In this document: positions 4,422 to 45,777 of the stretch, in pieces | Numbering within the stretch: the first letter of the stretch is position 1 | How the letters are laid out: every line of letters begins with the position of its first letter | NCBI GenBank assembly: GCA_964498125.1 | Contig: CAZCGE010000134.1 | Coordinates: 88,724 to 152,723 of the forward strand | DNA length: 64,000 nt | Direction of reading: 5' to 3' | Source: an uncultured Devosia sp. | GTDB lineage: Bacteria > Pseudomonadota > Alphaproteobacteria > Rhizobiales > Hyphomicrobiaceae | The notes under the pieces: generated by a model | Database searches by the model: none | Told to the model about the DNA's origin: nothing | What the model saw: only the letters and a program-made list of their open reading frames with translations | Made by a program: the position numbers and the translations under genes

Positions 4422-5834
4422 TTACAGCGGCACCGAGATCACCGCGCGCAGGCCGCCCATGGAGCTGGTGCCCAGCGTGATATCGCCGCCATGGCTCTTG
4501 GCGATGTCGCGGGCAATGGCCAGACCCAGGCCGGTGTTGCCCTTGTCCTGGTTGCGGGCATCGTCGAGGCGGTAGAACGGCCTGAACACGTTGTCGCGCT
4601 CACCGGCCGGGATACCCGGCCCATTGTCGTCCACCTCGACACGAAGCCACGGCCCCTCTGTAGCCGCTCGGATGACCACTCGTTCTCCGAAGCGGCAGGC
4701 GTTGCTGACGAGGTTGGTGACGGCCCTCTTGAATGCATTGCGTTTCAGCGGCAGCACCAGATCGGTCATGCGACGGCGCATCTTGAGTTCAATCTGGGTG
4801 TCATAAATATGCGCCTCGATGTGGACCTCCTCGAGGAGCTGGCGCAAGCTCGCGGGCCGCGCCTCCTCGCCTCCGTCACCCTTGGCGAATGCCAGATAAT
4901 CCTCCAGCATTTGCTGCATCTCACCGATATCGGAGCGCAGCGACTTGACCCCGGGACTGTCGTCGAGCATTTCCAACTCGAGCTTGAAGCGCGTCAAAAC
5001 CGTGCGCAAGTCGTGACTGACGCCGGCCAGCATCGTCGTGCGCTGTTCGACGTGGGTGGTGATGCGATCGCGCATCTCCAAAAACGCCTGCGCCGCCTGC
5101 CGCACCTCGCGCGCCCCACGCGGGCGGAAATCCTCCGGGATCGGACGTCCCTTGCCGAACTCGTCGGCCGCCTCGGCCAGCCGCAGGATCGGCTTGATCT
5201 GATTGCGCAGGAAAAGAATGGCGACGGTCAACAGGATCACCGACGTGCCTACCATCCACAGCAAGAAGATATAGCTGTTGGAGGGATAGGTCTGGCTGCG
5301 CGTGGCCACGAAGCGCAGCACGGCATTATCGACGCGCACGCGAATTTCCACGTGGCGACTTTCTCCGACCGTATCGAGCCAGAACGGCCGATTGACGTGC
5401 CGCTGGATCTCATTTTGCAGGGCCCGGTCGAGAAGGGCGAAGAACGGCCGCGGCAGAGGCGCCGGCAGATCGCCTGCCGGCAGCACCTGCATCGACAAAT
5501 TGAGCCTGTCCCGCGCCATCTCGATCAGGCGATTGTAGTCGGATTTCTCGTTGGCCACATAGAGGTCGACCAGTGCGGCGATGTTGCGCGCGGTCGCCTC
5601 CGACAGCCGGTGCGTCACGCGCTGCCAGTGGCTCTCCATGAAAGAGAAGGCGATGACGCCCTCGAGAACGACGATCGGCGCGATGATGATGATCAGGGCA
5701 CGGGCATAGAGTCCCTTGGGCAGAAGCTCGGCGCCCAGACGAGACAGCCGCTCACGAATCCAGGCAAGCCGATTCTTCAGCGTCGGCCACATGGCCGCGC
5801 GCGGCTCTGCTGTCTCTTGTGGGACCACCGCCAT
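4422..5834 (-). CDS. EnvZ-like sensor histidine kinase with two transmembrane helices, a periplasmic loop, HAMP, HisKA and HATPase_c domains
   Basis: The 470 aa product contains the H-box VSHDLRTVLTR and the G-boxes DDNGPGIP and GLGLAIARDIAKSHGG. It sits downstream of an OmpR-type regulator on the same strand. Confidence 0.9.
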   Translation of the reverse strand: MAVVPQETAEPRAAMWPTLKNRLAWIRERLSRLGAELLPKGLYARALIIIIAPIVVLEGVIAFSFMESHWQRVTHRLSEATARNIAALVDLYVANEKSDYNRLIEMARDRLNLSMQVLPAGDLPAPLPRPFFALLDRALQNEIQRHVNRPFWLDTVGESRHVEIRVRVDNAVLRFVATRSQTYPSNSYIFLLWMVGTSVILLTVAILFLRNQIKPILRLAEAADEFGKGRPIPEDFRPRGAREVRQAAQAFLEMRDRITTHVEQRTTMLAGVSHDLRTVLTRFKLELEMLDDSPGVKSLRSDIGEMQQMLEDYLAFAKGDGGEEARPASLRQLLEEVHIEAHIYDTQIELKMRRRMTDLVLPLKRNAFKRAVTNLVSNACRFGERVVIRAATEGPWLRVEVDDNGPGIPAGERDNVFRPFYRLDDARNQDKGNTGLGLAIARDIAKSHGGDITLGTSSMGGLRAVISVPL

Positions 5835-5887: not shown

Positions 5888-6616
5888 TCAGTCCGTATAT
5901 AGAATATAGCCCTTTCCGCGCACCGTCTGCAGATAGACTGGATTGGATGGATCGGCCTCGATCTTGCGTCGCAGCCGGTTGATCTGCACGTCGATCGCAC
6001 GCTCGCTGCCCGTGGATTCATCGGCCGCCAGATCCTGGCGTGGCACCGGCAGCCCCCGGCGTTGTGCGAACTGGCGCAGCAAATCGCGCTCGCGCTCGGT
6101 CAGCTTGATGCTTTCCTCGCCACGTTTCAATTCGCCACGGCCAATGTGAAACATATAATCGCCCATGCGCACCTCTTCGGGTGGCTCCTGCGAGGCTGCC
6201 AGTCCGCGGCGCATGATATTGCGCAGCCTGAGGAGGAGTTCGCGCGGCTCGAACGGTTTGGCCACGTAGTCCTCGACACCGATCTCGAGTCCGGCGATGC
6301 GCTCCTCCGGTTCCGAACGCGCCGTCAGCATGCAGATCGGGATGGCTGTTTCGGCCTTCAGCTCGCGGGCAAAATCCAGGCCGCTCTGTCCCGGCATCAT
6401 GACGTCGAGCAACACCAAATCGAAGCTCAAACCACGCATGGCCGCTCGCGCCGCCGCCGTATCGCCGGCCGAGGTGACGCGGAACCCTTGCCGCACGAGG
6501 TAACTGGCCAGCAGGTCGCGAATCTTGTGATCGTCATCCACGACGAGGATATGCGGCGCATCATCGGGCAGAGGTTGGAGCACCTGGCGGCCGCTTGGCG
6601 TCATCGACGTGGACAT
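5888..6616 (-). CDS. OmpR-family response regulator (receiver plus winged helix)
   Basis: The ATG at 6616 with an upstream GGAGG yields a 242 aa protein (ILVVDDDHKIRDLL...LDVMMPGQSG...VAKPFEPRELLLRLRNIMRR). The 273 aa six-frame ORF is an N-terminal over-extension. Confidence 0.9.
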   Translation of the reverse strand: MSTSMTPSGRQVLQPLPDDAPHILVVDDDHKIRDLLASYLVRQGFRVTSAGDTAAARAAMRGLSFDLVLLDVMMPGQSGLDFARELKAETAIPICMLTARSEPEERIAGLEIGVEDYVAKPFEPRELLLRLRNIMRRGLAASQEPPEEVRMGDYMFHIGRGELKRGEESIKLTERERDLLRQFAQRRGLPVPRQDLAADESTGSERAIDVQINRLRRKIEADPSNPVYLQTVRGKGYILYTD

Positions 6617-6635
6617 TGTGATCCTCCAATTCGCG

Positions 6636-7193
6636 TCACGTCGCACTGTCGCGCGCCGGCCCGGTCGCACGCAAAAGTTGCAATACTCTGCCCCGTTCCT
6701 CGGGCGCAATCAGGCCGAAGAGAAAGCGCTCGGCCGGGGCCTGGGCGGAAGGTCCGAGAGCGGCCATGGCCTCGGCGACTCGCCCCGTCTGCAGTGCCAT
6801 GAGCTCGCGAGCGAGTTCCGATCCCTTCAGCGTCACGTGCAACTGACGTTCGCGCCGGTCGGAAACGCCCGCAAGTTGCACGATATGATCTTCGTCAACA
6901 AGTTGCTTCAGCACCCGAGCCAGGCTCTGTTTGGTGATCTTCAGGATATCAAGCAAATCGGCCACCCGGATACCCGGATTGCGGCTGACGAAGTGCAGCA
7001 CCCGATGATGCGCGCGGCCGAAGCCAAACTTGGCCAGAACGGCGTCCGCATCGCCGGTGAAATCACGATAGGCAAAGTACAACAGCTCGACCAGTGTCAC
7101 CAGCTGCGGGTCTGGTCCGGCACGACCTTGTGGCGGCTGCGGGCGGCTCTCGCGGGGGCCGGCTTCGGACGCCTCTGGATTTACGTCAGTCAT
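6636..7193 (-). CDS. MarR-family transcriptional regulator
   Basis: The 185 aa product carries a MarR winged helix (...VLHFVSRNPGIRVADLLDILKITKQSLARVLKQLVDEDHI...). Confidence 0.85.
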   Translation of the reverse strand: MTDVNPEASEAGPRESRPQPPQGRAGPDPQLVTLVELLYFAYRDFTGDADAVLAKFGFGRAHHRVLHFVSRNPGIRVADLLDILKITKQSLARVLKQLVDEDHIVQLAGVSDRRERQLHVTLKGSELARELMALQTGRVAEAMAALGPSAQAPAERFLFGLIAPEERGRVLQLLRATGPARDSAT

Positions 7194-10173: not shown

Positions 10174-11619
10174 CTATTTCGTCTCTTCCGGCGCGCGATG
10201 ATAGATGTCGTCGGTGCGCACGATGTCATCCTCGCCGAGATAGGAGCCGATCTGCACCTCGATGATTTCCAGTGGCACCATGCCGGGGTTCTCCAAGCGG
10301 TGCCATTGCGTCGCGACAATGTAGACGCTCTCGTTTTCGCGCACGAGCTTGTCGCTGTCGCCGACCGTGACCTTGGCGGTGCCCTGCACCACCACCCAGT
10401 GTTCCGAGCGATGGTGGTGCATCTGCAGCGACAGCTTGCCCCCCGGTTTGACGTGCAGCACCTTCACCTGGAAGCGCGGGCCGATCGACAGTGTCTCGAA
10501 GAACCCCCACGGCCGGTAGCTGCGCAGGTGCTGAGCCTGCTCCTTGCGTCCTGACGTGCGCAGCCGGGCGACGATCGTCGAGACCTCTTGCGCGCGCGAT
10601 TTGTCGGCGACCAGCAAGGCATCGGGCGTGTCGACGATGATCAGGTCCTTGACGCCAATGGTGGCGACCAGCGATTTCTCGGCGTGAATGTAACTGTTGG
10701 AGGTGTCTTCCAGGATCGCATCGCCGTGTACGGCGTTTCCGGCCGCATCGCGTGGCGCGATATCCCACAGCGACGACCAGGAGCCGACGTCATTCCAACC
10801 GACATCGATCGGCAGCATGGCGGCCGCCGCGGTCTTCTCCATGACCGCATAGTCGACGGAGATGTTGGGCGAGGCAGCGAAAGCAGCGCCGTCCAGGCGC
10901 AGGAAGCCAAGGTCGACCGTCGCACCGGCAAGTGCCGCCTGGGCCGCCGCGAGTATGGCTGGCTCGAGCTTTGCCAGCTCGTCGATGAACGTGCGCGCGT
11001 GCAATACGAAGATGCCGCTGTTCCAATAGTAGCGCCCATCGGCCAGATAGCGTTCCGCGGTGGCGCGATCAGGCTTCTCGGTGAACGCCTCGACCGCGTA
11101 GGCGCCACCTGCACCCTTTGCGAGCGGCTGGCCCTGACGGATGTATCCATAGCCGGTGAGGGGTGCATCTGGCTTGATGCCAAACAGCACCAGCCTGCCG
11201 GTGGCGGCGACCGCGCCGGCATGGCGCACCGCGTCGGCAAAGCGGCTCTGCTCGCGGATCGCGTGATCCGAGGGCATCACCGCCAGCACGCCATCGGCAT
11301 CGGTCTCGGCAACGGCTAGAGCCGCCACCGCGATCGCGGCAGCGGTATTGCGGGCGACGGGCTCCAGGATGATCTGCCTGGCGGCCACGCCGGCACGCGC
11401 CAACTCGTCCTGGACGAGGAAGCGGTGATCGTTGTTGCACAGCAGGATCGGCGGATGAAACCCGCCTTCGGCCGCCAGCCGCTGCACTGTCGTGCCGAGC
11501 AAACTCGTGGCTTGGCCATGGAAAAAACGGATGAACTGCTTCGGATACATGGCTCTGGACAGCGGCCACAGTCGCGTCCCCGAGCCGCCCGACAAAATCA
11601 CCGGGTGAATTGCGCGCAT
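10174..11619 (-). CDS. Bifunctional mannose-1-phosphate guanylyltransferase / mannose-6-phosphate isomerase (ManC/XanB/AlgA family)
   Basis: The 481 aa product has an N-terminal nucleotidyltransferase fold (MRAIHPVILSGGSGTRLWPLSR) and a C-terminal cupin (QMHHHRSEHWVVVQGTAKV). Confidence 0.9.
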   Translation of the reverse strand: MRAIHPVILSGGSGTRLWPLSRAMYPKQFIRFFHGQATSLLGTTVQRLAAEGGFHPPILLCNNDHRFLVQDELARAGVAARQIILEPVARNTAAAIAVAALAVAETDADGVLAVMPSDHAIREQSRFADAVRHAGAVAATGRLVLFGIKPDAPLTGYGYIRQGQPLAKGAGGAYAVEAFTEKPDRATAERYLADGRYYWNSGIFVLHARTFIDELAKLEPAILAAAQAALAGATVDLGFLRLDGAAFAASPNISVDYAVMEKTAAAAMLPIDVGWNDVGSWSSLWDIAPRDAAGNAVHGDAILEDTSNSYIHAEKSLVATIGVKDLIIVDTPDALLVADKSRAQEVSTIVARLRTSGRKEQAQHLRSYRPWGFFETLSIGPRFQVKVLHVKPGGKLSLQMHHHRSEHWVVVQGTAKVTVGDSDKLVRENESVYIVATQWHRLENPGMVPLEIIEVQIGSYLGEDDIVRTDDIYHRAPEETK

Positions 11620-11805: not shown

Positions 11806-13776
11806 CTAGCGATTGGTCAGGCGCTCGCGCAGTGAGCGGAACGCACTGGCGTTCTGCGCCGCGGTGGCAGCGTCGGTCACCGGCACGTGGGCGGGCTCTG
11901 GGCGCGCGGGGACCGGCTTGCGCTGGCCTGTTTGAGCGGGCGACACAATCGGGCGAAGCTGACCATCCGCGGGCCGCCGCGCTGCGCCGGCTGCGGCGAT
12001 ATGCTGGTGCTCCAGCCCCGAGCCGTTGTCCTCCCCGCCTTGCGCCTCCAGATCGCTTGCGCCCTGAATCCCCATCGCTTCCGCGAACATGGCGAGGTTC
12101 TGGTGCTCATGGTTGCCGGCACCCGACGAGCGCCAGCGATCCACGACGGCCTCGAGCAGGCTTTCGTTGCCGACAGAATGCTGCCACTTCTCCGAGAACC
12201 GCGCCGTCGACGACCGCGGTAGGGCCGATTGGGGCAACTCGTCGAACTTGATGCGCACGGGCAGCGCCACGCCGTCACCAAAGGCAATGGCCTCGCGCTG
12301 GCCAAGCGCCCCGAGAAACTCCAGCAGTCCCGAGCCGGTGTCCGACACCGCCGAGGTGACAATCGCCTGGTCGCGATCATTCGACATGCGCAGCGCAAAC
12401 ACCGTATTGCACTGCGACAGGATGGTCGGATCAATCTCGGCGGGACGCTGGGTGACGATGCACAGCGAGGCGCCGTACTTGCGGCCCTCCTTGGCAATCT
12501 TGGCGATGGCGCGCTTGCATGGCTCGAAGCCCAGGTTGGAATTGAGCGGCACGTAGCGATGCGCTTCCTCGCAGATGATCGTCACCGGCACCTGGCCCTC
12601 CGACCACAGTGCGAAATCGAACGTCAGCCGGCAGATGACCGACACGACGACGCTGACGATCTCGGTGGGCAGGCCCGTCAACTCGAGGATGGTGATCGGC
12701 TTGTTGTTGACCGGCACGCGGAAGATGCGACCGAGCACCTGCGCCATGCCGTCATAGACGGTGAGCGAACCGAACATGAAGGCGTAACGGCCGTCCTGGG
12801 TGACGCTATCGATGGCGGACTTGAGGGCGCGATAGGGCTGCAGGTCCCGCTTGTTCTCGAGCCGGCCCATCCGCTCGTCGATCACCGCGGTGAGGTCGGA
12901 GATGCGATAGGGAACCGGTGTGTCGACGGTGAAGCGGCCGTTATCGAGGGGACCACGGCGCACATGCTGTTTGTCATTCTGGCGCCCGGCGCTGTAGCGG
13001 CCCTTGGCTATGGGAATCAGTTCCTGCAACAGCTCGATTTCGGCCTTGCGCGAGGTGTCACCAACCAGCACCTCGACGATCTCCTCGAAGTTGAGGAGCC
13101 AGTAAGGCAGATGCATGTTGCGGGGGCTGATCACCTCGGCCTGATCGCCGAATGCGGTCGCATATTCGTTGTGCGGATCGAGCAAGACCATGTGCGCGGC
13201 CGGATTCTTGCTCAGAATGGCCCGCAGGATCAGCGCGGTGGTGCAGGACTTGCCGGTGCCTGTCGTGCCGAGAATGGCAAAATGCTTGCCGAGCAGCTCA
13301 TCGATCCGGATCATGGCCGGGATCGAAGCATCCTGCTTGATCGTGCCAACGCGCACGGAGGACTTGGCATCGCCATGGAAGGCGCGCTGCAGCTCGGGTT
13401 TGGTGGCGACGCGCACGCGATCGCCCAGGCCGGGATAAATCGTGACGCCACGATTGAAGGCCTCCGGACGCGTATCCAACTGCTTCCAGATCTCGCCGAC
13501 CAGGCCAAGCTCCGCAATCCAGATCTCGGACTCCTTGTCGCCCTGTGAGGGGACGGGTACGGATAGGCCGGTCACGATGGCCAACACGATGGTGGTGTCG
13601 GTATCGATCGCCAACAGCGTGCCCATCTCTGGGCGCGGCAGGGCCTGCCGCGATCGCCCATCAATCACCGCATCGAGCAACACGATGGCCTTGGAACCGG
13701 TAACAGCGACGATTCGGCCAATCGAGCTGTCTGGGATCGTCAGTCCGTCATCACCGGAAAGGATTGCCGACTGCAT
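11806..13776 (-). CDS. HerA-like / DUF87 P-loop ATPase with a predicted N-terminal HAS-barrel
   Basis: Walker A is ILGTTGTGKSCTTALILRAIL. A hhhhDE box follows (TIICEEAHRYVP). The N-terminus is barrel-like (IGRIVAVTGSKAIVLLD). The start was chosen at the ATG at 13776 (M55 of the six-frame ORF) to avoid overlapping the upstream kinase gene. Confidence 0.7.
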   Translation of the reverse strand: MQSAILSGDDGLTIPDSSIGRIVAVTGSKAIVLLDAVIDGRSRQALPRPEMGTLLAIDTDTTIVLAIVTGLSVPVPSQGDKESEIWIAELGLVGEIWKQLDTRPEAFNRGVTIYPGLGDRVRVATKPELQRAFHGDAKSSVRVGTIKQDASIPAMIRIDELLGKHFAILGTTGTGKSCTTALILRAILSKNPAAHMVLLDPHNEYATAFGDQAEVISPRNMHLPYWLLNFEEIVEVLVGDTSRKAEIELLQELIPIAKGRYSAGRQNDKQHVRRGPLDNGRFTVDTPVPYRISDLTAVIDERMGRLENKRDLQPYRALKSAIDSVTQDGRYAFMFGSLTVYDGMAQVLGRIFRVPVNNKPITILELTGLPTEIVSVVVSVICRLTFDFALWSEGQVPVTIICEEAHRYVPLNSNLGFEPCKRAIAKIAKEGRKYGASLCIVTQRPAEIDPTILSQCNTVFALRMSNDRDQAIVTSAVSDTGSGLLEFLGALGQREAIAFGDGVALPVRIKFDELPQSALPRSSTARFSEKWQHSVGNESLLEAVVDRWRSSGAGNHEHQNLAMFAEAMGIQGASDLEAQGGEDNGSGLEHQHIAAAGAARRPADGQLRPIVSPAQTGQRKPVPARPEPAHVPVTDAATAAQNASAFRSLRERLTNR

Positions 13777-13810
13777 GTGCTTCAGGTCCCTTGCTACCGA
13801 GATTTTCGCA

Positions 13811-14707
13811 TCAAAACGTAGAGCCTTGCCCAAATACGGCGTCGCGACCCTCGTGAATGTTGACGAGATGGCGCGGCGGCAATGACACGATGACTGTGGT
13901 GCCCTCGTCCTTGACGCTGCGGATCTCGATCTGACCACCGTGCAGTTCGATCAGTGCCTTGGCGATCGGCAGGCCGAGGCCGGCACCCTCGCGCCAGCGT
14001 GCGCGGCCGCCATCGACCTGTCCGAACGGCGTCAGGGCGATTTTCAACTCTTCTTCGGTCATGCCGACGCCGGCATCATGAATCTGCACGTAAACGCCGC
14101 CTTCCTCGGTCCGCGTCGCCCGCACGGCGACGGCTCCACCGGCGCGCGAGAACTTGATGGCATTGCCAAACAGATTGGTGAAAATCTGCCGCAATTTTAC
14201 CGGGTCGCCGCGGATCGGGCCAAGCGCCGGCGCAATTTCCTTGTCCAAAGTGACATGGGCCTCGTTGGCCTGCTGCTGCAGCGATGCCAGGCAGGACAGC
14301 AGGACTTCGCTGAGCGCCACCTCCCGGCTGTCCAGCGTGTAGCGGCCGCTCTGAATCTTGGAAATGTCGAGGACGTCGTTGATGACCGACAGCAGGTGGC
14401 TTGCGGCGTCGTTCACGAGATTGGCGTACTCGACAATCTCATTATCTGGCAGGTGGCGCCGATCCTGCTCCATCAGGAGCTTGGAAAACCCGATGACGGT
14501 ATTCAACGGCGTCCTGAGTTCATGACTCATGTTCGAGATGAACTCGGACTTGACCTTGCTGGCAAGCTCGGCCTCGATGCGGGCGGCATGCTCGGCCTTG
14601 CGTGTGCGGTTGCGCAGCACAGCATCGGCAAGCAACGTCGAGTACTCGCCCATGAGCGAGTTGCTGTTGCCCTTTGCAGCTTTGGCATGGAACATTGCGA
14701 CACGCAT
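13811..14707 (-). CDS. Soluble sensor histidine kinase (HisKA plus HATPase_c, no transmembrane or obvious sensor domain)
   Basis: The 298 aa product contains the H-box SHELRTPLNTVIGFSKLL, an N-box NLFGNAIKFS and G-boxes DAGVGM and GLGLPIAKALIELHGG. It sits 35 bp upstream of the HerA-like ATPase on the same strand. Confidence 0.85.
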   Translation of the reverse strand: MRVAMFHAKAAKGNSNSLMGEYSTLLADAVLRNRTRKAEHAARIEAELASKVKSEFISNMSHELRTPLNTVIGFSKLLMEQDRRHLPDNEIVEYANLVNDAASHLLSVINDVLDISKIQSGRYTLDSREVALSEVLLSCLASLQQQANEAHVTLDKEIAPALGPIRGDPVKLRQIFTNLFGNAIKFSRAGGAVAVRATRTEEGGVYVQIHDAGVGMTEEELKIALTPFGQVDGGRARWREGAGLGLPIAKALIELHGGQIEIRSVKDEGTTVIVSLPPRHLVNIHEGRDAVFGQGSTF

Positions 14708-14893
14708 CTTCCCGCTACAGATAGATCAAATGTAGGTATCATTTAATAAGGTCCGGTTAAGAGGGGGAGGGCGGCGCCGCAACCCTTGGCCAGAACCTTG
14801 GAAAAGAAGGCTCTGGTGCTGCAACTCGGGCTTCCGGCCACAGCGCTGGGGACCGCTCGCCATGCGATCTGGTACCCCTTCCCGACCTCAGCC

Positions 14894-14920
14894 TTGTCGG
14901 CCCAGCATTGTCGGCCCAGC
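14894..14920. promoter_or_regulatory. Tandem direct repeat TTGTCGGCCCAGC x2 in the promoter region of the maleylacetate reductase operon
   Basis: Two exact 13-mers lie one base apart at 14894-14906 and 14908-14920, about 95 bp upstream of the ATG at 15012. Confidence 0.3.
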
Positions 14921-15011
14921 CTTGCCGGGTTGTGTCTCGACCCAGCCTGCCTGTACGATTGGGATCGCACCGGCGGGTGGGCAAGACCAACCCGTCCGGC
15001 AGGAGGAGCCG

Positions 15012-16079
15012 ATGGTCGAACGTTTCATCTACAATGGCTTGCCATCTCGCGTCATTTTTGGCTCTGGAACGCTGGCCGAGCTGCCGGCCGAGGTCGACCG
15101 GCTCGGCGCCAGGCGAGCGCTCATCCTGACAACGCCGACGCGCACGGGGTGGGGGAACGCGATTGCGACCAGACTTGGCAACCGCGCGGCGGGCGTATTC
15201 TCAGGCGCCGTCATGCACACGCCGTTCGATGTGACCGACAAGGCCATGCAGGTCGTCAAGGACACCCGAGCCGATTGCGTCATTGCCATGGGCGGCGGTT
15301 CGACCATTGGATTGGCCAAGGCCATCGCCTTGAGGACTAGCCTGCCGCAAGTCGCCGTTCCAACGACCTACGCCGGATCGGAAATGACGCCGATCCTGGG
15401 TGAAACGCGGGACGGCGTGAAATCCACCCAGCGCAGTCTCGAGGTTCTGCCCGAGACCGTGATCTATGACGTTGACTTGACGCTGACCATGCCGCCGCAG
15501 TTGTCGGGCATCAGCGGCATCAATGCCATCGCCCACGCGGTCGAGGCCCTATACGCCCAGGACCGCAACCCAATCATCGGTATCATGGCCGAGGAGTCGA
15601 TTTCCGCCTTGGGCCGGGCACTGCCGCGCATCGTCGAGAACCCGAAGGATGCGACGGCGCGTGGCGATGCGCTTTATGGTGCCTGGCTCGCGGGCACCTG
15701 CCTGGGCGTTGTCGGCATGGCGCTGCACCACAAGCTCTGCCATACCCTCGGCGGCACGTTCAACCTGCCGCATGCGGAGACCCATACGATCATGCTGCCG
15801 CATGCCACGGCCTATAATGCGCCTGCCACGCCCGACGCCATGGCCCGCATTGCGCGTGCCCTTGGCGCCAAGGATGCCGCGCCCGGTCTCTATGGGTTGG
15901 CGCAAAAGGTCGGTGCCAAGCTCGCCCTGCGTGACCTCGGCATGCCGGAAGGCGGCATTGACAAGGCGGCCACCTTGCGACCCAAAACCCCTATTGGAAT
16001 CCGCGCCCAATCGAGCGTGGCGCCATTCGTGACCTCATCGCCCGCGCCTGGGCAGGAGAGCCACCGCAGTCGACATGAC
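15012..16079 (+). pseudogene. Maleylacetate reductase (iron-containing alcohol dehydrogenase family) with an apparent -1 frameshift near 15975. This is either a real pseudogene or a single-base sequencing error.
   Basis: The N-terminal ~320 aa (MVERFIYNGLPSRVIFG...GGGSTIGLAKA...HHKLCHTLGG) are in one frame. After ...LGMPEGGIDKAA the conserved C-terminus NPYWNPRPIERGAIRDLIARAWAGEPP* continues in another frame, ending at 16079. The original frame instead gives a low-complexity S/P/R tail that runs into the next gene. Confidence 0.55.
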
Positions 16080-21581: not shown

Positions 21582-24500
21582 CTACTCCGCCGCCATGCGC
21601 CGCAGCGTATATTGCGCCAGCATCGCACGCAGCGCAGCAGCCTTGAGCGGTTTGCGCAGCAGCCCGGCGCCCTGCCGCCGAATATCGCGCTGCACCTCGG
21701 GCGACTGATCGGCGGTGATGACGATGGCTGGGATGTGCCGGCCAGCACTGACCCTCGCCGCGGCGATGACGTCGAGGCCGACGCCCTGATCCAGGTGATA
21801 GTCAGCCAGGATTGCATCCGGCGGCTTGGCTTGCGCCGACAAAATGGCCAGCGCCTCGGCGAGACCGCCTGCCGGCAATACGATGCAGCCCCAGCCGCGC
21901 AGCAGCGTCACCATGCCGTCGAGCACAGCCGGCTCATTGTCGACGCACAACACTGTGATACCGGCGAGATTACCGGACACGGCGGGCGCGGCATGTGCCG
22001 AGGGTTCCCGACGCTCCTGCGCCGCGGCGCGCGGCAAAGCCACTGAGAATGTCGAGCCGCGCCCAGGCGCGGAGACGATGTGCACGGGGGCGCCCAGCAA
22101 ACGGCCGATGCGCTCGACGATGGAAAGGCCAAGCCCCAGCCCGCGGACCAGGTTCGCCGTCTCGTCGAGCCGCTGGAACTCCTTGAAAATAATGCTGTGC
22201 TTGTCCGCGGGAATGCCCGGTCCGGTATCTGCGACCATGATCAGGATTTCGCCGCCGCGCCGGCGCACACCCACCAGCACCCTGCCGGTGCGGGAGTATT
22301 TCACGGCATTCGATACCAGGTTCTGCAGCAGACGGCGCAACAGGCGCCGGTCCGACCGTACCCAGATCTTGGTCTCGACCACCCTCAACTCGAGATTGCG
22401 CTCGCCTGCCATGGGCTCGAATTCGACCTTCAGTTGCTCGAGGATATCGCCGAGGGAGAACTCGCTGATGTCCGGCTCGAGCCGGCCGGCATCCAGCCGC
22501 GAGATATCGATGAGGGTCGAGAAGATCTCTTCGACGGCCTCCAGCGAAGCATCGATGTTGCGCGCCAGCGTCGCCTCGCCCTTATCGAGCTGGCTCTCGG
22601 CCAGGCTCGCCGTATAAAGCCGCGCCGCGTTGAGCGGCTGCAGGATGTCGTGGCTTGCCGCGGCGATGAAACGTGTCTTGTCGAGGTTGGCGGCATCCGC
22701 CTTGGACTTGGCGACGGCGAGGGCCTGGTTCACCTGCAGCAGCTCAGTGGTCCGTTCAATGACGCGCCGCTCCAGCGTCTCGTTGGCCCGCGCCAGCGCC
22801 GTTGCCGCCGAAACGCGATCGGTGATGTCGGAATAGGTCGTGACGAAGCCGCCCTGCGGCATGGCTGCCGTGCGAATTTCCAGTATGCGGCCGCCATGAT
22901 TGATCCGCTCCTGGAATGTCTCCTTGGTGACCGAGAGCCGCATCAGCCGTTCCGCAATCAACGGCTCGACCGGACCATCGCCGAAGTCGCCGCGCTCCGC
23001 GCAGACGCGCAGGATACGTTCGAGTGGCACGCCGACGCGGCCGACATCGGCGGGCAGGTCGAGCAGCTCGCGGAACTGCCGGTTCCAGCAGACCAGCCGC
23101 AATTCCTTGTCGAACACGCTGAGCCCGTGTCGGACCTGATCAAGTGCCGACTGCAGCAAGTCGCGATTGTATTGCAACGCCTCGGAGGCATCGTCGAGCA
23201 GCTTCAGCGCCGACAGACTGCCGACGTTGTTGCGCCTGAGCAGCAGCGACAGAACGAGCCGCGCCGAGGCGGCACCGATGGCGCTGGTGAGCAGGTGCTC
23301 GGTGAAGCGCACGGTTTGGATATCGGCCTCGGCATGCGCCGGCAACTGACTGTTGCGGCTCGCCGCGTGCTCGGCGAACGAGCGCTCGGCGCGCTCATGG
23401 CCAAGATATCGCGCCACCGTGGTCTGCAGATCGTGCACCGTGATCGATGACCGCCAGATGCGGAACGCGGGCGCCGGCATCGGCCCTGGCGGCAGGTCAT
23501 CGTGCACGAACAGGTGTGCCTGAAGCCGCTCGATCGGCTCGGGCGCGCGCAGTAGCGAGACGATGACGAAGGCGGCGATATTGCCGGCCATGGAGAACAG
23601 CACGCCATGGGTCAGCGGCTCGAACTGCAGGAAGAACAAGGCTTGCGGCTTGAGAATGCCCAACGAAAGCGGACCCTCCGAGATCAGCGACGTCGACACC
23701 CAGCCAGCCTTGGCAACCCAGGGCAGCAGCAAGGTGTAGGCCCACAGCGCGAAACCCGTCAGCATGCCCGCTATCGCGCCGCGGGCCGTGCCGCGCCGCC
23801 AGACCAGACCGAGGAAGAACGCCGGCGCCAATTGCGCGATGGCGGCGAAGGCAACGAGGCCGATCGCCACCAGCTCCTGATTCTGGCCGATTGCACGGTA
23901 GACCGTATAGCCCAGCAGCAGAATGATGACGATGGCGACGCGGCGGATGACGAGCAACTTCACCGCCATATCTTCCTGCCGCTCGGTATCGGCCAAGCCG
24001 TTATTGAGCAGCAATGGAATGACAATGCCGTTGCACACCATGATGGCCAGCGCGATCGACTCCACGATCACCATGGCAGTGGCCGCCGACAGGCCGCCGA
24101 TGAAGGCGATCAGCGACAGGGTCGGTGAACCGGCGGCCAGCGGCAGCGAGAGCACATAAAAATCCGGGTCGGCCAGTCCCGAAGGCAGCACCATGATGCC
24201 GGCGGCGGCAATCGGCACCACGAACAGGTTGATCAGCACAAGGTAGGCCGGGAACAGCCAGGCCGCGCGGCGCACCTCCTTCTCGGAGTGGTTTTCGACC
24301 ACCGTGACATGGAACTGGCGTGGCAGCAGAATGATGCAGACGAACGACAGAAACGTCATCGTCAGCCATGTGCCGCCATTGAAACCCTGGCCGAATGTCG
24401 CCTGCACGTGCGGGTTGATGCGGGCGTTGGCGAGAAATTCTCCGACTCCGCCAAACATGGAGAAAACCACGAAAAAGCCGACGGCCAGGAAGGCCGCCAG

Positions 24501-25115
24501 CTTGATCAGCGACTCCGCGGCAATGGCCAGCATCAGTCCGTCCTGATGCTCGGTGGCATCGATGTGCCGCGTGCCGAACAGAATGGCGAAGGCAGCCAGC
24601 ACCAGCGTGATGACGAAGGCCGTGTCGGTGAGGCCGATGTTGGGCAGCGCCATCGGCACCAGCGGACTGCCGCCCAGCAGCGTCTCGACCGCGACGGCAA
24701 TGGCTTTGAGCTGCAGCGCGATGTAGGGCAGCGTGCCGACAACGGCGACAGTCGTGACGACCGCGGCCACCGCCTGGCTCTTGCCATAGCGGGCCGCCAG
24801 GAAATCGGCGATCGAGGTCAGATTCTGCGTCTTGGCCAGCCGCACGATGCGCAGCACCAGCGGCCAGCCCAATGCGAACATGAGAATCGGGCCGATGTAG
24901 ACCGGGATGAAATCGTACCCCGTCGAGGCGGCGCGCCCGACGCTGCCAAAGAACGTCCAGGACGTGCAATAGACGGCCAGCGACAGAGCATAGATCAGCG
25001 GCCTGCCAAGGCCGTCTCGGCCGGGGCTGAGCACCCGGTCGCCAGTCCAGGCCAGCGCGAACAGGGCACTGACGTACCCGAGCGCCACTGCAACGATCAA
25101 CCAACCCTCAAACAT
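21582..25115 (-). CDS. Hybrid sensor histidine kinase fused to an N-terminal sodium:solute symporter (SSF/SLC5) domain, followed by PAS, HisKA, HATPase_c and REC domains (CrbS/CbrA-like)
   Basis: The 1177 aa product has ~13 transmembrane helices N-terminally (MFEGWLIVAVALGYVSALF...), then ASHDILQPLNAARLY, G-boxes, and a C-terminal receiver (VLCVDNEPAVLDGM...ADYHLD). Confidence 0.9.
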   Translation of the reverse strand: MFEGWLIVAVALGYVSALFALAWTGDRVLSPGRDGLGRPLIYALSLAVYCTSWTFFGSVGRAASTGYDFIPVYIGPILMFALGWPLVLRIVRLAKTQNLTSIADFLAARYGKSQAVAAVVTTVAVVGTLPYIALQLKAIAVAVETLLGGSPLVPMALPNIGLTDTAFVITLVLAAFAILFGTRHIDATEHQDGLMLAIAAESLIKLAAFLAVGFFVVFSMFGGVGEFLANARINPHVQATFGQGFNGGTWLTMTFLSFVCIILLPRQFHVTVVENHSEKEVRRAAWLFPAYLVLINLFVVPIAAAGIMVLPSGLADPDFYVLSLPLAAGSPTLSLIAFIGGLSAATAMVIVESIALAIMVCNGIVIPLLLNNGLADTERQEDMAVKLLVIRRVAIVIILLLGYTVYRAIGQNQELVAIGLVAFAAIAQLAPAFFLGLVWRRGTARGAIAGMLTGFALWAYTLLLPWVAKAGWVSTSLISEGPLSLGILKPQALFFLQFEPLTHGVLFSMAGNIAAFVIVSLLRAPEPIERLQAHLFVHDDLPPGPMPAPAFRIWRSSITVHDLQTTVARYLGHERAERSFAEHAASRNSQLPAHAEADIQTVRFTEHLLTSAIGAASARLVLSLLLRRNNVGSLSALKLLDDASEALQYNRDLLQSALDQVRHGLSVFDKELRLVCWNRQFRELLDLPADVGRVGVPLERILRVCAERGDFGDGPVEPLIAERLMRLSVTKETFQERINHGGRILEIRTAAMPQGGFVTTYSDITDRVSAATALARANETLERRVIERTTELLQVNQALAVAKSKADAANLDKTRFIAAASHDILQPLNAARLYTASLAESQLDKGEATLARNIDASLEAVEEIFSTLIDISRLDAGRLEPDISEFSLGDILEQLKVEFEPMAGERNLELRVVETKIWVRSDRRLLRRLLQNLVSNAVKYSRTGRVLVGVRRRGGEILIMVADTGPGIPADKHSIIFKEFQRLDETANLVRGLGLGLSIVERIGRLLGAPVHIVSAPGRGSTFSVALPRAAAQERREPSAHAAPAVSGNLAGITVLCVDNEPAVLDGMVTLLRGWGCIVLPAGGLAEALAILSAQAKPPDAILADYHLDQGVGLDVIAAARVSAGRHIPAIVITADQSPEVQRDIRRQGAGLLRKPLKAAALRAMLAQYTLRRMAAE

Positions 25116-35876: not shown

Positions 35877-36117
35877 AGGCCCCAAGGGCGAGAAGCGCCC
35901 CGCCGACGTGATCGGCAACGCCGTCAAGGTGATGAAGATCGCCACCGGCGAGGAGTCCGAGGTGCTGACCGACGACGGCAAGGACGAGGCCGCGCAGTCG
36001 CTCGGAAGGCGAGGTGGGGAAGCCCGTGCCAAGGTGCTAAGCCCAAAGCGCAGGGTTGAGATCGCGCGTAGAGCAGCTAAGTCCCGCTGGAAGACCGAAA
36101 CCGAGAAGGCAGATTAG
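35869..36117 (+). CDS. Small hypothetical basic protein (82 aa)
   Basis: The C-terminus reads GRRGGEARAKVLSPKRRVEIARRAAKSRW. It overlaps the preceding small ORF. Confidence 0.35.
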   Translation: MPKGPKGEKRPADVIGNAVKVMKIATGEESEVLTDDGKDEAAQSLGRRGGEARAKVLSPKRRVEIARRAAKSRWKTETEKAD

Positions 36118-37333
36118 CCTCCTTCTCCGTTTGCCTTCTGATGAAACCGGAAAGCATCGGGACAGCGAATTGGTATCGACCAAATCGGTTCCTGTAGATC
36201 AAGCCCTTGTCTTCGAGACGGCTTAGGTACTGCGCGACGCTGCTGCTGGAGTACTTTTTGTCGAGTACGTCCTTGGAAATGCGGATGATTTCTTGAGCTG
36301 TAAATTCCGCCTCGCAGTTTGGAAGCTGTGCTACGACTTTCAGAAAGACTCGCTGTGGATCAGAGACGAGATCCCAACGCTTAGAGAAGAAGTTCTGATC
36401 CAACTTCTGAAGCACCTGTGCGACAGGGATGACGAGTGGTTCATTTGATATGAGCTTCGCCATATATACATCAAAAGCCTCTCTACAAATATATTGGATG
36501 AAGAACGGGTATCCGCCTGAATGGTTCACGATGGCCTCAACGGACTCTGGCGTGAATTTTACGGGGCATTTTTCCTGCTGAAGGGGTACCGTGATAGCGT
36601 CACGAGATTCCTCCTCGCTGAGTCTGTCCAGCATCAGCGTATGGAACATGCGCTCGGAGTAAGTTCTCGCCTTTGTGAGCCGAGAGAACAGAGTCGGAAG
36701 GCCAGTTAGAACTAGCATGAATGGATATCCCCCCGGATGCTTCTGCACCGACTGGAACACGTCTAAAAGCAGCGAAAGCGGGTACTGATCCTTTTGTGCG
36801 TGGTCAGCCAAGTTTTGTGCCTCGTCGTAGGCAAAAATAATACCCTTGACCCCGGTCGAAGAAATCATTTTGCCAACGTGCCTGAGGACACTTTTGAGCT
36901 TGTCGGCCACAACACCTGGTGTGCCGTCGTAGATCTTTTGAAGATCGGCATACTCAAGCGGGCGCTGTTTCGTCGTCTTTTTACCGATGAATCCTATCGG
37001 CATCTCAACTTGGGTTTTTAGAAAAATAGAGCCAAGTAAAAGGGTGAGATCAGTAATTATGCGGACGACAATGCGTTCCTCGTTCAAGGTAGTTTGTTCG
37101 CTGAACTCATCCCCCGTCCAGAGCCAGCCTGCCTGTTGAGCAATGGGCTTAATGTGCCCAAGGAGCGCCGTTTTACCTACTCCGCGCAATCCCGAAAGAA
37201 TCAGATTCTGGGTGATTATGGGTTGACGGAGGAGCCGTCTAAACTCGTCCTGCTCAAGGGTTCGGCCGGCGAGATACGGAGGCGCGTGCCCAGAGCCAGG
37301 CACGAATGGGTTGGCGAAGAGATCAGGCTGCAT
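36077..37333 (-). CDS. AAA ATPase of the Arch_ATPase (PF01637-like) family with a C-terminal DUF234-type winged helix
   Basis: Walker A is LILSGLRGVGKTALLGHI and Walker B is GIIFAYDEAQNL. The product also contains GGYPFFIQYICREAFD and ends ...KGLIYRNRFGRYQFAVPMLSGFIRRQ. The gene has lower GC than its surroundings. Confidence 0.75.
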   Translation of the reverse strand: MQPDLFANPFVPGSGHAPPYLAGRTLEQDEFRRLLRQPIITQNLILSGLRGVGKTALLGHIKPIAQQAGWLWTGDEFSEQTTLNEERIVVRIITDLTLLLGSIFLKTQVEMPIGFIGKKTTKQRPLEYADLQKIYDGTPGVVADKLKSVLRHVGKMISSTGVKGIIFAYDEAQNLADHAQKDQYPLSLLLDVFQSVQKHPGGYPFMLVLTGLPTLFSRLTKARTYSERMFHTLMLDRLSEEESRDAITVPLQQEKCPVKFTPESVEAIVNHSGGYPFFIQYICREAFDVYMAKLISNEPLVIPVAQVLQKLDQNFFSKRWDLVSDPQRVFLKVVAQLPNCEAEFTAQEIIRISKDVLDKKYSSSSVAQYLSRLEDKGLIYRNRFGRYQFAVPMLSGFIRRQTEKEANLPSRFRSSSGT

Positions 37334-37399: not shown

Positions 37400-38400
37400 G
37401 ATCGTAAAAATGACTTTTATACTTGACGCTAGGCAAAAATATCATATATTATGGGCATGAACAAGCTGCCCATACAGAAGCGCGTCCAAATCCTCGCCAT
37501 GTTCTGCGAGGGATCGTCCATGCGGTCGATCTCGCGGGTCTGCGACGTGTCGATCAATACCATCGCGAAGATGTTGGAAGATGCCGGCAAGGTCTGCATG
37601 GCGTTCCATGACGCCAACGTGCGGAACGTCAAGGCCAAGCGGGTGCAAGTCGATGAAATCTGGTCGTTTTGCGCCGCCAAGCAGAAGAATGTGCCGACCA
37701 TGAAGAAGCCCGTTGATCGCGCTGGCGACGTGTGGACGTGGACGGCGTTGGAGGCGGACACCAAGTTGATCGTACAGTGGTACGTCGGCGACCGCGACGG
37801 CGACACTGCCAAGTATTTCATCAACGATCTGGCCAGCCGTCTCGCGACGCGCGTGCAACTGACCAGCGACGGCCTCAAGGCCTATCTCGAAGCGGTCGAG
37901 GGCGCCTTCGGCGCCGACGTGGACTATGCTCAGCTCGTGAAATTGTACGGCGAAAGCCCGGAAGTCGAGAAGCGCTACTCGCCGGCCGAATGTGTCGGCG
38001 CCCGCAAAACACGGATCGAGGGTGATCCCGATCCGGCGCACATTTCGACTTCCTATGCCGAGAGGCAGAACCTGACGATGCGCATGCACATGCGGCGCTT
38101 CACGAGGCTGACGAATGCATTCAGCAAAAAGTTCGAGAGCTACGTCAACATGGTCGCTCTCTATGCCGTCTGGTACAACTTCATCCGTATTCACAAGACG
38201 CTGTGGGTGACGCCTGCAATGGCCGCTGGCCTCACCGGCAAGCTGATGAGTATGGAAGACGTTGTTGCGTTGATGGATGCCGTCGCGCCGAAGCCGGGAC
38301 GGCCCAAGACTTACAAAAAGCGCGGCGAAGAAATTTCAAACTGAGACACCACCCGAAGCGCGGCGCGACCCGACAGAGAATTGCGCGCGAAGCGCTCGCA
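37400..38400 (+). mobile_element. IS1-family insertion sequence (single-ORF type). Terminal inverted repeats not resolved.
   Basis: Contains the transposase CDS at 37451-38344 within an AT-richer patch. Boundaries are approximate. Confidence 0.55.
37451..38344 (+). CDS. IS1-family transposase (fused InsA-like helix-turn-helix plus InsB-like DDE domain)
   Basis: The N-terminal helix-turn-helix reads SSMRSISRVCDVSINTIAKMLE. The product also has RVQVDEIWSFCAAKQKN (compare InsB DEMWSF) and the C-terminus ...YAERQNLTMRMHMRRFTRLTNAFSKKFESYVNMVALYAVWYNFIRIH, characteristic of InsB. Confidence 0.8.
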   Translation: MGMNKLPIQKRVQILAMFCEGSSMRSISRVCDVSINTIAKMLEDAGKVCMAFHDANVRNVKAKRVQVDEIWSFCAAKQKNVPTMKKPVDRAGDVWTWTALEADTKLIVQWYVGDRDGDTAKYFINDLASRLATRVQLTSDGLKAYLEAVEGAFGADVDYAQLVKLYGESPEVEKRYSPAECVGARKTRIEGDPDPAHISTSYAERQNLTMRMHMRRFTRLTNAFSKKFESYVNMVALYAVWYNFIRIHKTLWVTPAMAAGLTGKLMSMEDVVALMDAVAPKPGRPKTYKKRGEEISN

Positions 38401-45332: not shown

Positions 45333-45517
45333 CCGGCGTCTCATTACCGCGGACTCGAACGGCTTGATCCACTCGCCGTCCGTGCGCAAATCTAATGTTG
45401 CGACTCATTCATATGGTACCTGGATCGAGGCCGAGCATTCGCTACGCGAGAAGGGCTGCCGCCCACATATTTACTTGCGTGCCTCCGGCACGACCCCGCT
45501 TGGGGGACGTCCAAACC

Positions 45518-45777
45518 CCCTCTTTATTATGGATAAAGAGGGGCGGGTCTGGGAGTGCTTCCCTCCCAGCGGGGTCTGGGACCGGCTCCAGTCGTGAAGC
45601 CAATAGCGCCGGGAATCATATGAACGGGCCAGAACACTAATACCAACCTGCGCAGACTCTGACTCTCAGTTATGCCGTGCGCAGGTTGGTATTCTCTTTT
45701 GTTTGCGCGCAGCCGCCACGCCAACCCTGCGCGCGTATACCAATCTGCATGGGTCAATACCCATGCAGATTGGTATA
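45518..45777. repeat. Cluster of five stem-loops (REP-like) in the convergent gap between hdaA and the GH25 gene
   Basis: The five hairpins are: CCCTCTTTAT/ATAAAGAGGG at 45518-45542; CTGGGAG/CTCCCAG at 45549-45569; AATACCAACCTGCGCA/TGCGCAGGTTGGTATT at 45639-45693; CGCGCAG/CTGCGCG at 45706-45734; and a perfect 19-bp stem TATACCAATCTGCATGGGT/ACCCATGCAGATTGGTATA at 45736-45777. Confidence 0.75.

Follow-up and report, generated by a model that had tools for sequence, protein, structure and literature searches.

How might a histidine kinase that carries no sensor domain receive its signal? This question is raised by a locus in the 64,000-nucleotide (nt) stretch of uncultured Devosia DNA analysed here (the window), in which the gene of a soluble, sensor-less kinase of the HisKA class lies immediately upstream of the gene of a HerA/DUF87 P-loop ATPase of the FtsK-HerA superfamily (hereafter HerA). 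The two genes form a conserved chromosomal module. We propose, with a probability of about 0.5, that the pair constitutes one conserved signalling module, in which an orphan, bifunctional kinase has HerA as its input or scaffold in trans. A first-pass annotation had described a kinase of about 298 amino acids (aa) with HisKA and HATPase domains only, placed 35 bp upstream of a HerA-like ATPase of about 657 aa in one transcription unit, with no response regulator adjacent, and had regarded such a module as undescribed. The open reading frames (ORFs) are indeed placed in this way, HerA being 656 aa long from the ATG at 13776; the junction, of 34 nt, is operon-like and has no terminator-like site; the only receiver-domain (REC) gene detected by tblastn in the window has a HAMP kinase of its own; and no paper on such a module was found in the literature searched.

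Conservation of the gene pair

The HerA alignment was scanned against one genome per species, which gave 80 loci, and the kinase was sought at these loci by tblastn with the window kinase. It lies directly upstream of HerA, on the same strand, in 24 of the 25 assessable loci in which HerA shares at least 51% identity with that of the window. The same placement is found in 13 further loci, in which HerA is 44-49% and the kinase 34-45% identical, and which are labelled Stellaceae, Parvibaculum, Kiloniellaceae and Micropepsaceae, together with two metagenome-assembled genomes (MAGs; Thiohalocapsa, Rhizobium). With these four groups, the kinase-linked loci span Hyphomicrobiaceae, Methyloligellaceae, Rhodobiaceae, Anderseniella and Aestuariivirga. 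The gene-neighbourhood analysis that had been suggested as a check thus came out in favour of the pair, which is co-conserved across several alphaproteobacterial families. The loci come mostly from MAGs, some of them with wrong taxon labels (Leptospira, Frankia, Janthinobacterium), the ORF starts were set mechanically, and the HerA tree described below is an unbootstrapped neighbour-joining tree.

When the ORFs flanking HerA were clustered, the kinase was the only neighbour common across families (38 loci), the next non-shadow clusters having at most 12 members and being lineage-specific. All 38 kinases belong to one ORF cluster with a median length of 294 aa (283-313 aa, except for one over-extended ORF), lengths that leave no room for a sensor domain. 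The gap between the two mechanical ORFs is at most 63 nt in 35 of 36 related loci, with several overlaps, and reaches 136 nt in the remaining one (L025). The order kinase-HerA-manC is repeated in the two nearest relatives and at two places in further contigs, and relatives of both proteins, at 61-84% identity, are numerous in Hyphomicrobium and other Hyphomicrobiaceae assemblies, several of the HerA and kinase matches being on contigs of equal length. Moreover, the pairwise identities of kinase and HerA co-vary (r = 0.92), which fits co-inheritance, although a correlation would be expected for any pair of genes passed on vertically.

Alphaproteobacterial kinase-HerA or HerA loci were also met in assemblies labelled Leptospira interrogans (L003), Frankia sp. 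RB7 (L051), Janthinobacterium (L081, a MAG) and Thiohalocapsa (L033, a MAG). The HerA of the first is 70% identical to the window protein and is followed by manC; these odd labels probably reflect contamination or mis-binning.

In the HerA tree, one clade is wholly kinase-less (Bradyrhizobium, Nitrobacter, Rhodoplanes, Xanthobacteraceae), and in the other most members are kinase-linked, nine kinase-less tips being dispersed among them. The HerA orthologues of Sinorhizobium, Nitratireductor and Sphingomonas (38-45% identity) have no adjacent kinase either. In kinase-less lineages, a gene for an EAL or GGDEF-EAL protein adjoins HerA in 9 loci from at least five lineages (Table 1); these neighbours are just 23-32% identical to the query protein, taken from locus L034, and the GGDEF-EAL gene of Nitratireductor begins 4 nt past the HerA stop codon. 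Their recurrence strengthens the link of this HerA clade to signalling enzymes. In two other kinase-less loci, the direct neighbour of HerA encodes a ParC-like topoisomerase IV/gyrase subunit A (L035, 10-2103, plus strand; L027, 4912-7179, minus strand), an arrangement that recalls the link between FtsK and ParC in E. coli.

The two proteins and a candidate contact surface

HisKA (aa 53-121, PF00512, 67.2 bits) and HATPase_c (aa 167-279, PF02518, 90.6 bits) are the only Pfam domains of the kinase. The AlphaFold2 (AF2) model, with a predicted local distance difference test (pLDDT) score of 70, has a disordered segment (1-16), a long helix (18-79) that includes His62, a second helix (88-120) and then the catalytic domain. 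No transmembrane, PAS or GAF segment was seen in the Pfam scan or in the model, and an N-terminal sensor or transmembrane input domain, as found in class I kinases, is absent from the 298-aa protein by both approaches and by the lengths of its relatives. According to the model and the Pfam domains, the protein is therefore a bare core of the dimerization/histidine-phosphotransfer (DHp) and catalytic (CA) domains, preceded by a helical stub of about 30 residues that extends the first DHp helix. It has all the features of a class I (HisKA) kinase core: the H box SHELRTPLN with His62, the N box (N182), and the G1 (DAGVGM) and G2 (GAGLGL) boxes are intact and conserved across relatives, as is the HExxT phosphatase motif in the alignment, and the enzyme appears catalytically competent. 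Its true start may be Met5, because residues 1-4 fall in gaps in the relatives and Met5 is nearly invariant. Within the stub, seven residues (L18, Y22, L25, A29, R36, A38 and E39) do not vary in the close family, and K37 is shared by all 39 aligned sequences. Against curated profiles, the LuxQ, TorS and BarA cores score slightly above DivJ and PdhS, all of them short of the equivalog cut-offs. Among solved structures, the GacS core (7z8n; PMC12148439) comes closest, and relatives of the kinase are labelled 'PleC' by JGI.

The HerA ORF can be extended to a GTG at 13938, but the ATG at 13776 gives the protein that aligns with its relatives from residue 1. Its assignment to the superfamily is clear: the DUF87/HerA central domain (PF01935, aa 141-384) scores 144.7 bits against a cut-off of 23.2 (5.7e-42), and the Walker A (GTTGTGKS, aa 170-177) and Walker B (IICEEAH, aa 400-406) motifs are invariant in the alignments. 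No receiver domain was found in it by Pfam. The AF2 model is poor as a whole (pLDDT 47, shallow alignment) and was used neither for a fold search nor for surface mapping; it places beta-strands at residues 18-123 in a barrel-like arrangement (pLDDT about 58-77), and we regard this region as barrel-like with moderate confidence. Of the solved homologues, the HerA of the Paenibacillus SIR2-HerA system (PDB 8wiv, E = 5.7e-65) is the closest, but the first 104 residues do not align to it in sequence. The best profile matches are likewise of the defence type (PADLOC HerA PDLC04105, 1.3e-112; NCBIfam HerA_antiphage_2, 3e-70). All curated cut-offs are far from being reached: HerA_antiphage_2 scores 237.6 bits against 850, HerA_antiphage 151.9 against 800, helicase_HerA 124.5 against 970 and HerA_Thermprot 104.1 against 800. 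The ATPase thus falls well short of the cut-off of every characterised HerA family.

The protein ends in a low-complexity tail of about 100 residues, a long and variable linker rich in P, Q and A that carries a terminal basic amphipathic motif. This motif is invariant within Hyphomicrobiaceae (LRSLRERLMR), and its counterparts are SLASLIKQFRS in the Rhodobiaceae group and DPDRFSLLKKPLR in Bradyrhizobiaceae. Speculatively, it recalls membrane-targeting helices of the MinD/FtsA type. We considered the tail as an anchor for the kinase and discarded it: analogous motifs occur in the kinase-less Bradyrhizobiaceae, and the tail is missing from the kinase-linked Stellaceae and Parvibaculum.

A better candidate came from comparing alignment columns between kinase-linked and kinase-less HerA proteins. 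Five positions set the kinase-linked proteins apart, including two in the putative barrel, P74 (in an S-x-P-x-P loop) and E89. Both are invariant in the 37 kinase-linked proteins (37/37). One or the other is lost in seven of the nine kinase-less proteins nested within the kinase-linked clade, two of the nine keeping both (Fisher p = 7e-7, kinase-linked against nested kinase-less proteins), and none of the 31 proteins of the outer kinase-less clade has kept both. The losses among the nested proteins were probably independent. In SIR2-HerA, the N-terminal alpha1 helix of SIR2 is bracketed by two HerA beta-barrels (PMC11472057), and the NurA dimer docks on the N-terminal layer of the HerA hexamer (PMC11472057). 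Because of the SIR2 precedent, the conserved stub of the kinase and the way in which P74 and E89 track the presence of the kinase, we suggest that kinase helix 18-50 would dock on the HerA barrel.

The promoter element and the surrounding window

Upstream of the kinase lies a CtrA-box-like element, TTAAC-N6-TT[A/G], followed by a −10-like TAnnnT hexamer, TACATT. In the aligned regions upstream of the kinases, the element reads [A/G]TTAAC[C/T]-N5-TT[A/G] and is found 40-73 nt before the start in most loci of the Hyphomicrobiales type, with the TAnnnT hexamer at a fixed spacing behind it; because of this fixed spacing, the element would lie over the −35 region. Exact matches to TTAAC-N6-TT[AG] number 36 in 1.87 Mb of loci, and 23 of the 36 are within 130 nt upstream of a kinase start. 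The window has a single match (14747-14760), against 0.31 expected, and the kinase-less clade is without the element. A full CtrA box is TTAA-N7-TTAA(C) (PMC7200025, PMC4083442); the element has the same half-site spacing of 11 bp, and its first half-site, [A/G]TTAAC[C/T], is near-invariant. It also resembles the half-box or SciP-type motif, (G/A)TTAACCAT(A/G) (PMC4083442), and L001, one of the related loci, carries TTAACCAT itself. A scan for sigma-70 promoters returned none that matched at the element, and TTAAC taken as a sigma-70 −35 hexamer would be 20 nt away from TAnnnT. Judged by the usual consensus sequences, the element would not be a promoter of the sigma-EcfG or RpoH type, and it would match no alphaproteobacterial LexA box and no integration host factor (IHF) site. 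It may be bound by CtrA, in which case expression of the operon may be tied to the cell cycle. A cell-cycle-linked function had been among the early suggestions for this pair, and it draws some support, still tentative, from the conservation of this element. In the Hyphomicrobiaceae genome of L001, a second TTAAC-N6-TTA match (11841-11858, plus strand) precedes an outer-membrane beta-barrel gene by about 100 nt; this gene, too, may be controlled by the same regulator.

The tandem 13-mer that had been pointed out in this divergent promoter region is real, with exact copies at 14894 and 14908, and belongs to a series of three to four 14-nt units. Its relevance to the module did not hold up, and we set it aside as part of the kinase-HerA unit: it lies on the side of the divergent iron-containing alcohol dehydrogenase (Fe-ADH) gene, which is not conserved beyond the nearest relatives and is replaced in other loci by tonB/exbBD or by ppx/rlmE. 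The repeat is probably the operator of the catabolic Fe-ADH operon.

As to possible partners of the kinase in the window, four receiver-domain queries (CheY, PhoB, Spo0F and NtrC; tblastn, E <= 0.01) detected one OmpR-type regulator only, which we rejected as a partner since it owns the adjacent HAMP kinase. The kinase-HerA operon has no REC gene, and thus no cognate regulator of its own. About 7 kb from the locus, Pfam recognises a hybrid kinase of CbrA-like architecture (Table 1). The GC content of the locus equals that of its flanks. At the gathering threshold, Rfam reported no RNA family anywhere in the window; ARAGORN called a tRNA-His at 45494-45576 (plus strand) with the anticodon ATG, where GTG is usual; this may be a mis-call, and Rfam reported no tRNA. 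The segment 36001-38000 has a GC content of 0.53, against about 0.64 elsewhere, and is probably a small acquired island, with an AAA_16 ATPase ORF (36077..37333, minus strand) and an IS1-like transposase fragment (37451..38344, plus strand).

Table 1. Features of the kinase-HerA locus, of its surroundings in the window and of related loci (window positions unless a locus is named)
Feature	Position	Strand	Remarks
Kinase ORF	13811..14707	-	298 aa; perhaps 294 aa from ATG 14695
Kinase residues 18-50, N-terminal helical stub	14558..14656	-	AF2 helix 18-79 and alignment
Kinase-HerA junction	13777..13810	-	34 nt
HerA/DUF87 P-loop ATPase	11806..13776	-	656 aa; putative barrel, ATPase core, disordered P/Q/A-rich tail
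HerA residues 72-89, putative barrel	13510..13563	-	loop S-V-P74-V-P and E89; column comparison
HerA C-terminal motif FRSLRERLTNR, residues 645-656	11809..11844	-	basic, amphipathic; on the P/Q/A-rich linker
TTAAC-N6-TT[A/G] element, TTAACCGGACCTTAT	14746..14760	-	CtrA-box-like; 53 nt upstream of ATG 14707, 65 nt from ATG 14695
TACATT, −10-like TAnnnT hexamer	14729..14734	-	fixed spacing from the TTAAC element
manC	10174..11619		downstream of HerA
Fe-ADH gene	starts near 15012		divergent, upstream of the kinase; heads an Fe-ADH/amidohydrolase/dehydrogenase operon
Tandem 14-nt units, CAGCCTTGTCGGCC	14889-14948	+	three to four, including both 13-mers; 57-118 nt upstream of the Fe-ADH gene
OmpR-type response regulator	5888..6709		next to HAMP kinase 4422..5834
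Hybrid kinase	21582..25115	-	SSF transporter-like, PAS_7, HisKA, HATPase_c and C-terminal REC (Pfam); CbrA-like
HerA loci with an EAL or GGDEF-EAL neighbour	L032, L034, L049, L054, L057, L074, L078, L081, L083, L089		tandem, divergent or convergent

A working model, its rivals and known systems

According to the model that we favour, the HerA hexamer would supply the input that the sensor-less kinase itself lacks. The N-terminal helical stub would attach dimers of the kinase to the barrel face of HerA, and the state of the ATPase ring, set by its nucleotide or by its substrate (probably DNA), would switch the kinase between its kinase and phosphatase modes. A response regulator whose gene lies at another place in the genome would then receive the signal. 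An activator-type promoter, the −35 region of which is occupied by the CtrA-box-like element, would drive the operon, with expression perhaps tied to the cell cycle. Physical contact between kinase and HerA, the direction in which information flows, DNA as the substrate of HerA and CtrA as the protein at the promoter element are inferred elements of this scheme.

Several observations weigh against it. Many HerA orthologues, as in Bradyrhizobium, Nitrobacter, Rhodoplanes, Sinorhizobium and Sphingomonas, occur without an adjacent kinase, so that the kinase is not essential to HerA function. No kinase-HerA fusion was found among the ten long HerA representatives checked: their N-terminal extensions of 100-390 aa contain no kinase domain and are probably mis-called starts. 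No REC gene is conserved near the pair, and a REC gene of any kind is present within 6 kb in only one of the 38 kinase-linked loci. The correlation with P74 and E89 is based on the unbootstrapped tree and on MAG-derived loci, some of them mislabelled, and the poor HerA model (pLDDT 47) does not allow the two residues to be placed on a surface. As to the promoter, the element departs from a canonical full CtrA box in its second half-site, where TTAT, TTAG or TTGA is found but never TTAA, and its binder could be another regulator of the OmpR family, including the kinase's own partner.

The direction of control might also be reversed, the kinase regulating HerA by binding or by unconventional phosphorylation, so that anything acting on the kinase would also gate the translocase or ATPase activity of HerA. 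Histidine kinases usually phosphorylate the aspartates of receiver domains; because HerA has no receiver domain, the phospho-regulated translocase imagined at the outset keeps a place among the explanations but ranks below control of the kinase by HerA. The kinase, moreover, has no sensor domain with which to take up an independent signal, and the HerA orthologues of many lineages function without it. The co-conservation of the genes and the barrel-residue data would nevertheless fit this direction too, and in known HerA pairs the partners influence one another (PMC11472057); on the whole, we hold it to be unlikely. A somewhat smaller chance is given to the view that the two genes are co-transcribed and mechanistically independent, the kinase answering a cytoplasmic cue and signalling to an unlinked regulator, and the pair sharing a promoter and a regulon only. 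The conserved promoter element could by itself explain why the genes have stayed together, no fusion protein was found, and HerA stands alone in many genomes. However, the adjacency persists down to 34% identity for the kinase and 44% for HerA, when all other neighbours have changed, the junctions are tight or overlapping, and the barrel residues of HerA track the presence of the kinase across independent losses.

A further explanation, also put forward at the outset, makes the pair an anti-phage or conflict system of the SIR2-HerA/DUF4297-HerA type, with the kinase as effector or signalling arm. It would account for the best profile matches and for the closest solved structures, which are those of anti-phage HerAs. 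However, the HerA_antiphage_2 score is far below its cut-off, and the kinase has no meaningful PADLOC match. No SIR2 or DUF4297 partner is present at the window locus, where the neighbours are the kinase and manC, or in 81 related loci. The mobile and patchy context of a defence island is not what we see: both proteins are 65-75% identical family-wide, the synteny with manC is conserved, the neighbours of HerA loci are housekeeping genes (manC, tonB/exbBD, ppx, rlmE, parC), the HerA tree broadly follows taxonomy, as expected of vertical inheritance, and the locus shows no GC anomaly. Of the 46 relatives of HerA on viral contigs, none exceeds 41% identity and none has a kinase within 3 kb; the phage collection yielded a terminase-level match only, so that no orthologue-level copy was found in the phage and viral collections searched. 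Matches in the plasmid collection are 38-45% identical and lie on records of non-mobilizable megaplasmids, chromids or mislabelled chromosomes, and matches of still lower identity adjoin SIR2 or DUF4297 genes. A defence role is thus not supported by context, conservation or the viral and phage searches, and we consider it very improbable.

A bolder version of control by HerA, possible and quite tentative, would make the HerA ring a sensor of DNA or nucleotide; the docked kinase would read it out and pass the signal on to the cell-cycle circuitry, and this circuitry would control the operon through the CtrA-like box. If true, budding and asymmetrically dividing alphaproteobacteria would have a phosphorelay directly linked to the status of the chromosome or DNA, and the EAL and GGDEF-EAL neighbours of HerA where the kinase is absent would imply that this ATPase feeds cyclic di-GMP signalling as well. 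How sensor-less cytoplasmic histidine kinases receive signals is largely obscure, and a kinase with a hexameric motor ATPase as its input would add a new input logic to two-component systems. The module is sharply defined, by two genes, two candidate contact elements (P74/E89 in HerA and helix 18-50 in the kinase) and a promoter box, and cultivable genera, Hyphomicrobium and Parvibaculum among them, possess it, the loci studied here being mostly MAGs with those labels.

The pair has the known architecture of HerA with a partner enzyme, the new aspect being a signalling partner and a housekeeping context. SIR2-HerA and DUF4297-HerA are also two-gene units of a partner enzyme and HerA, and the HerA of Paenibacillus SIR2-HerA is the closest solved homologue of ours. 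In SIR2-HerA the N-terminal helix of the partner binds the barrel layer of HerA (PMC11472057), to which the helical stub and the kinase-linked barrel residues would correspond here. In contrast, the partner is an NADase or a nuclease in these systems and a histidine kinase here; they are mobile, whereas this locus is core, syntenic and vertically inherited, and their profile cut-offs are not reached. The HerA-NurA machinery of archaea and Deinococcus-Thermus, which resects DNA ends at double-strand breaks, likewise combines a HerA hexamer with a dimeric partner on its N-terminal layer (PMC11472057). It differs in that no nurA gene is adjacent here, where the neighbours are the kinase and manC, and the helicase_HerA score is far below that of the family. 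The known partners of HerA (NurA, SIR2 and DUF4297) are all destructive enzymes, and a kinase partner in a core locus would extend the principle of HerA as a scaffold from defence and repair to housekeeping signalling. On the side of the kinase, PleC, DivJ and PdhS share the HisKA core with the HExxT motif, the alphaproteobacterial host and, possibly, CtrA-linked expression. The scores (163.7 against 1000 for DivJ, 170.2 against 2000 for PdhS) place our kinase outside these families; it is without their N-terminal sensor or localisation domains, and its closest solved core is that of GacS. In the cyanobacterial clock, KaiC, a hexameric ATPase of the RecA superfamily, is the input for the histidine kinases SasA and CikA, and the response regulator is encoded elsewhere. 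The module has no counterpart of the KaiB-like docking domain of SasA, KaiC does not belong to the HerA ATPases, and homology is limited to the kinase core; nevertheless, the module described here may work in a similar way, with a kinase that has no ligand-binding sensor.

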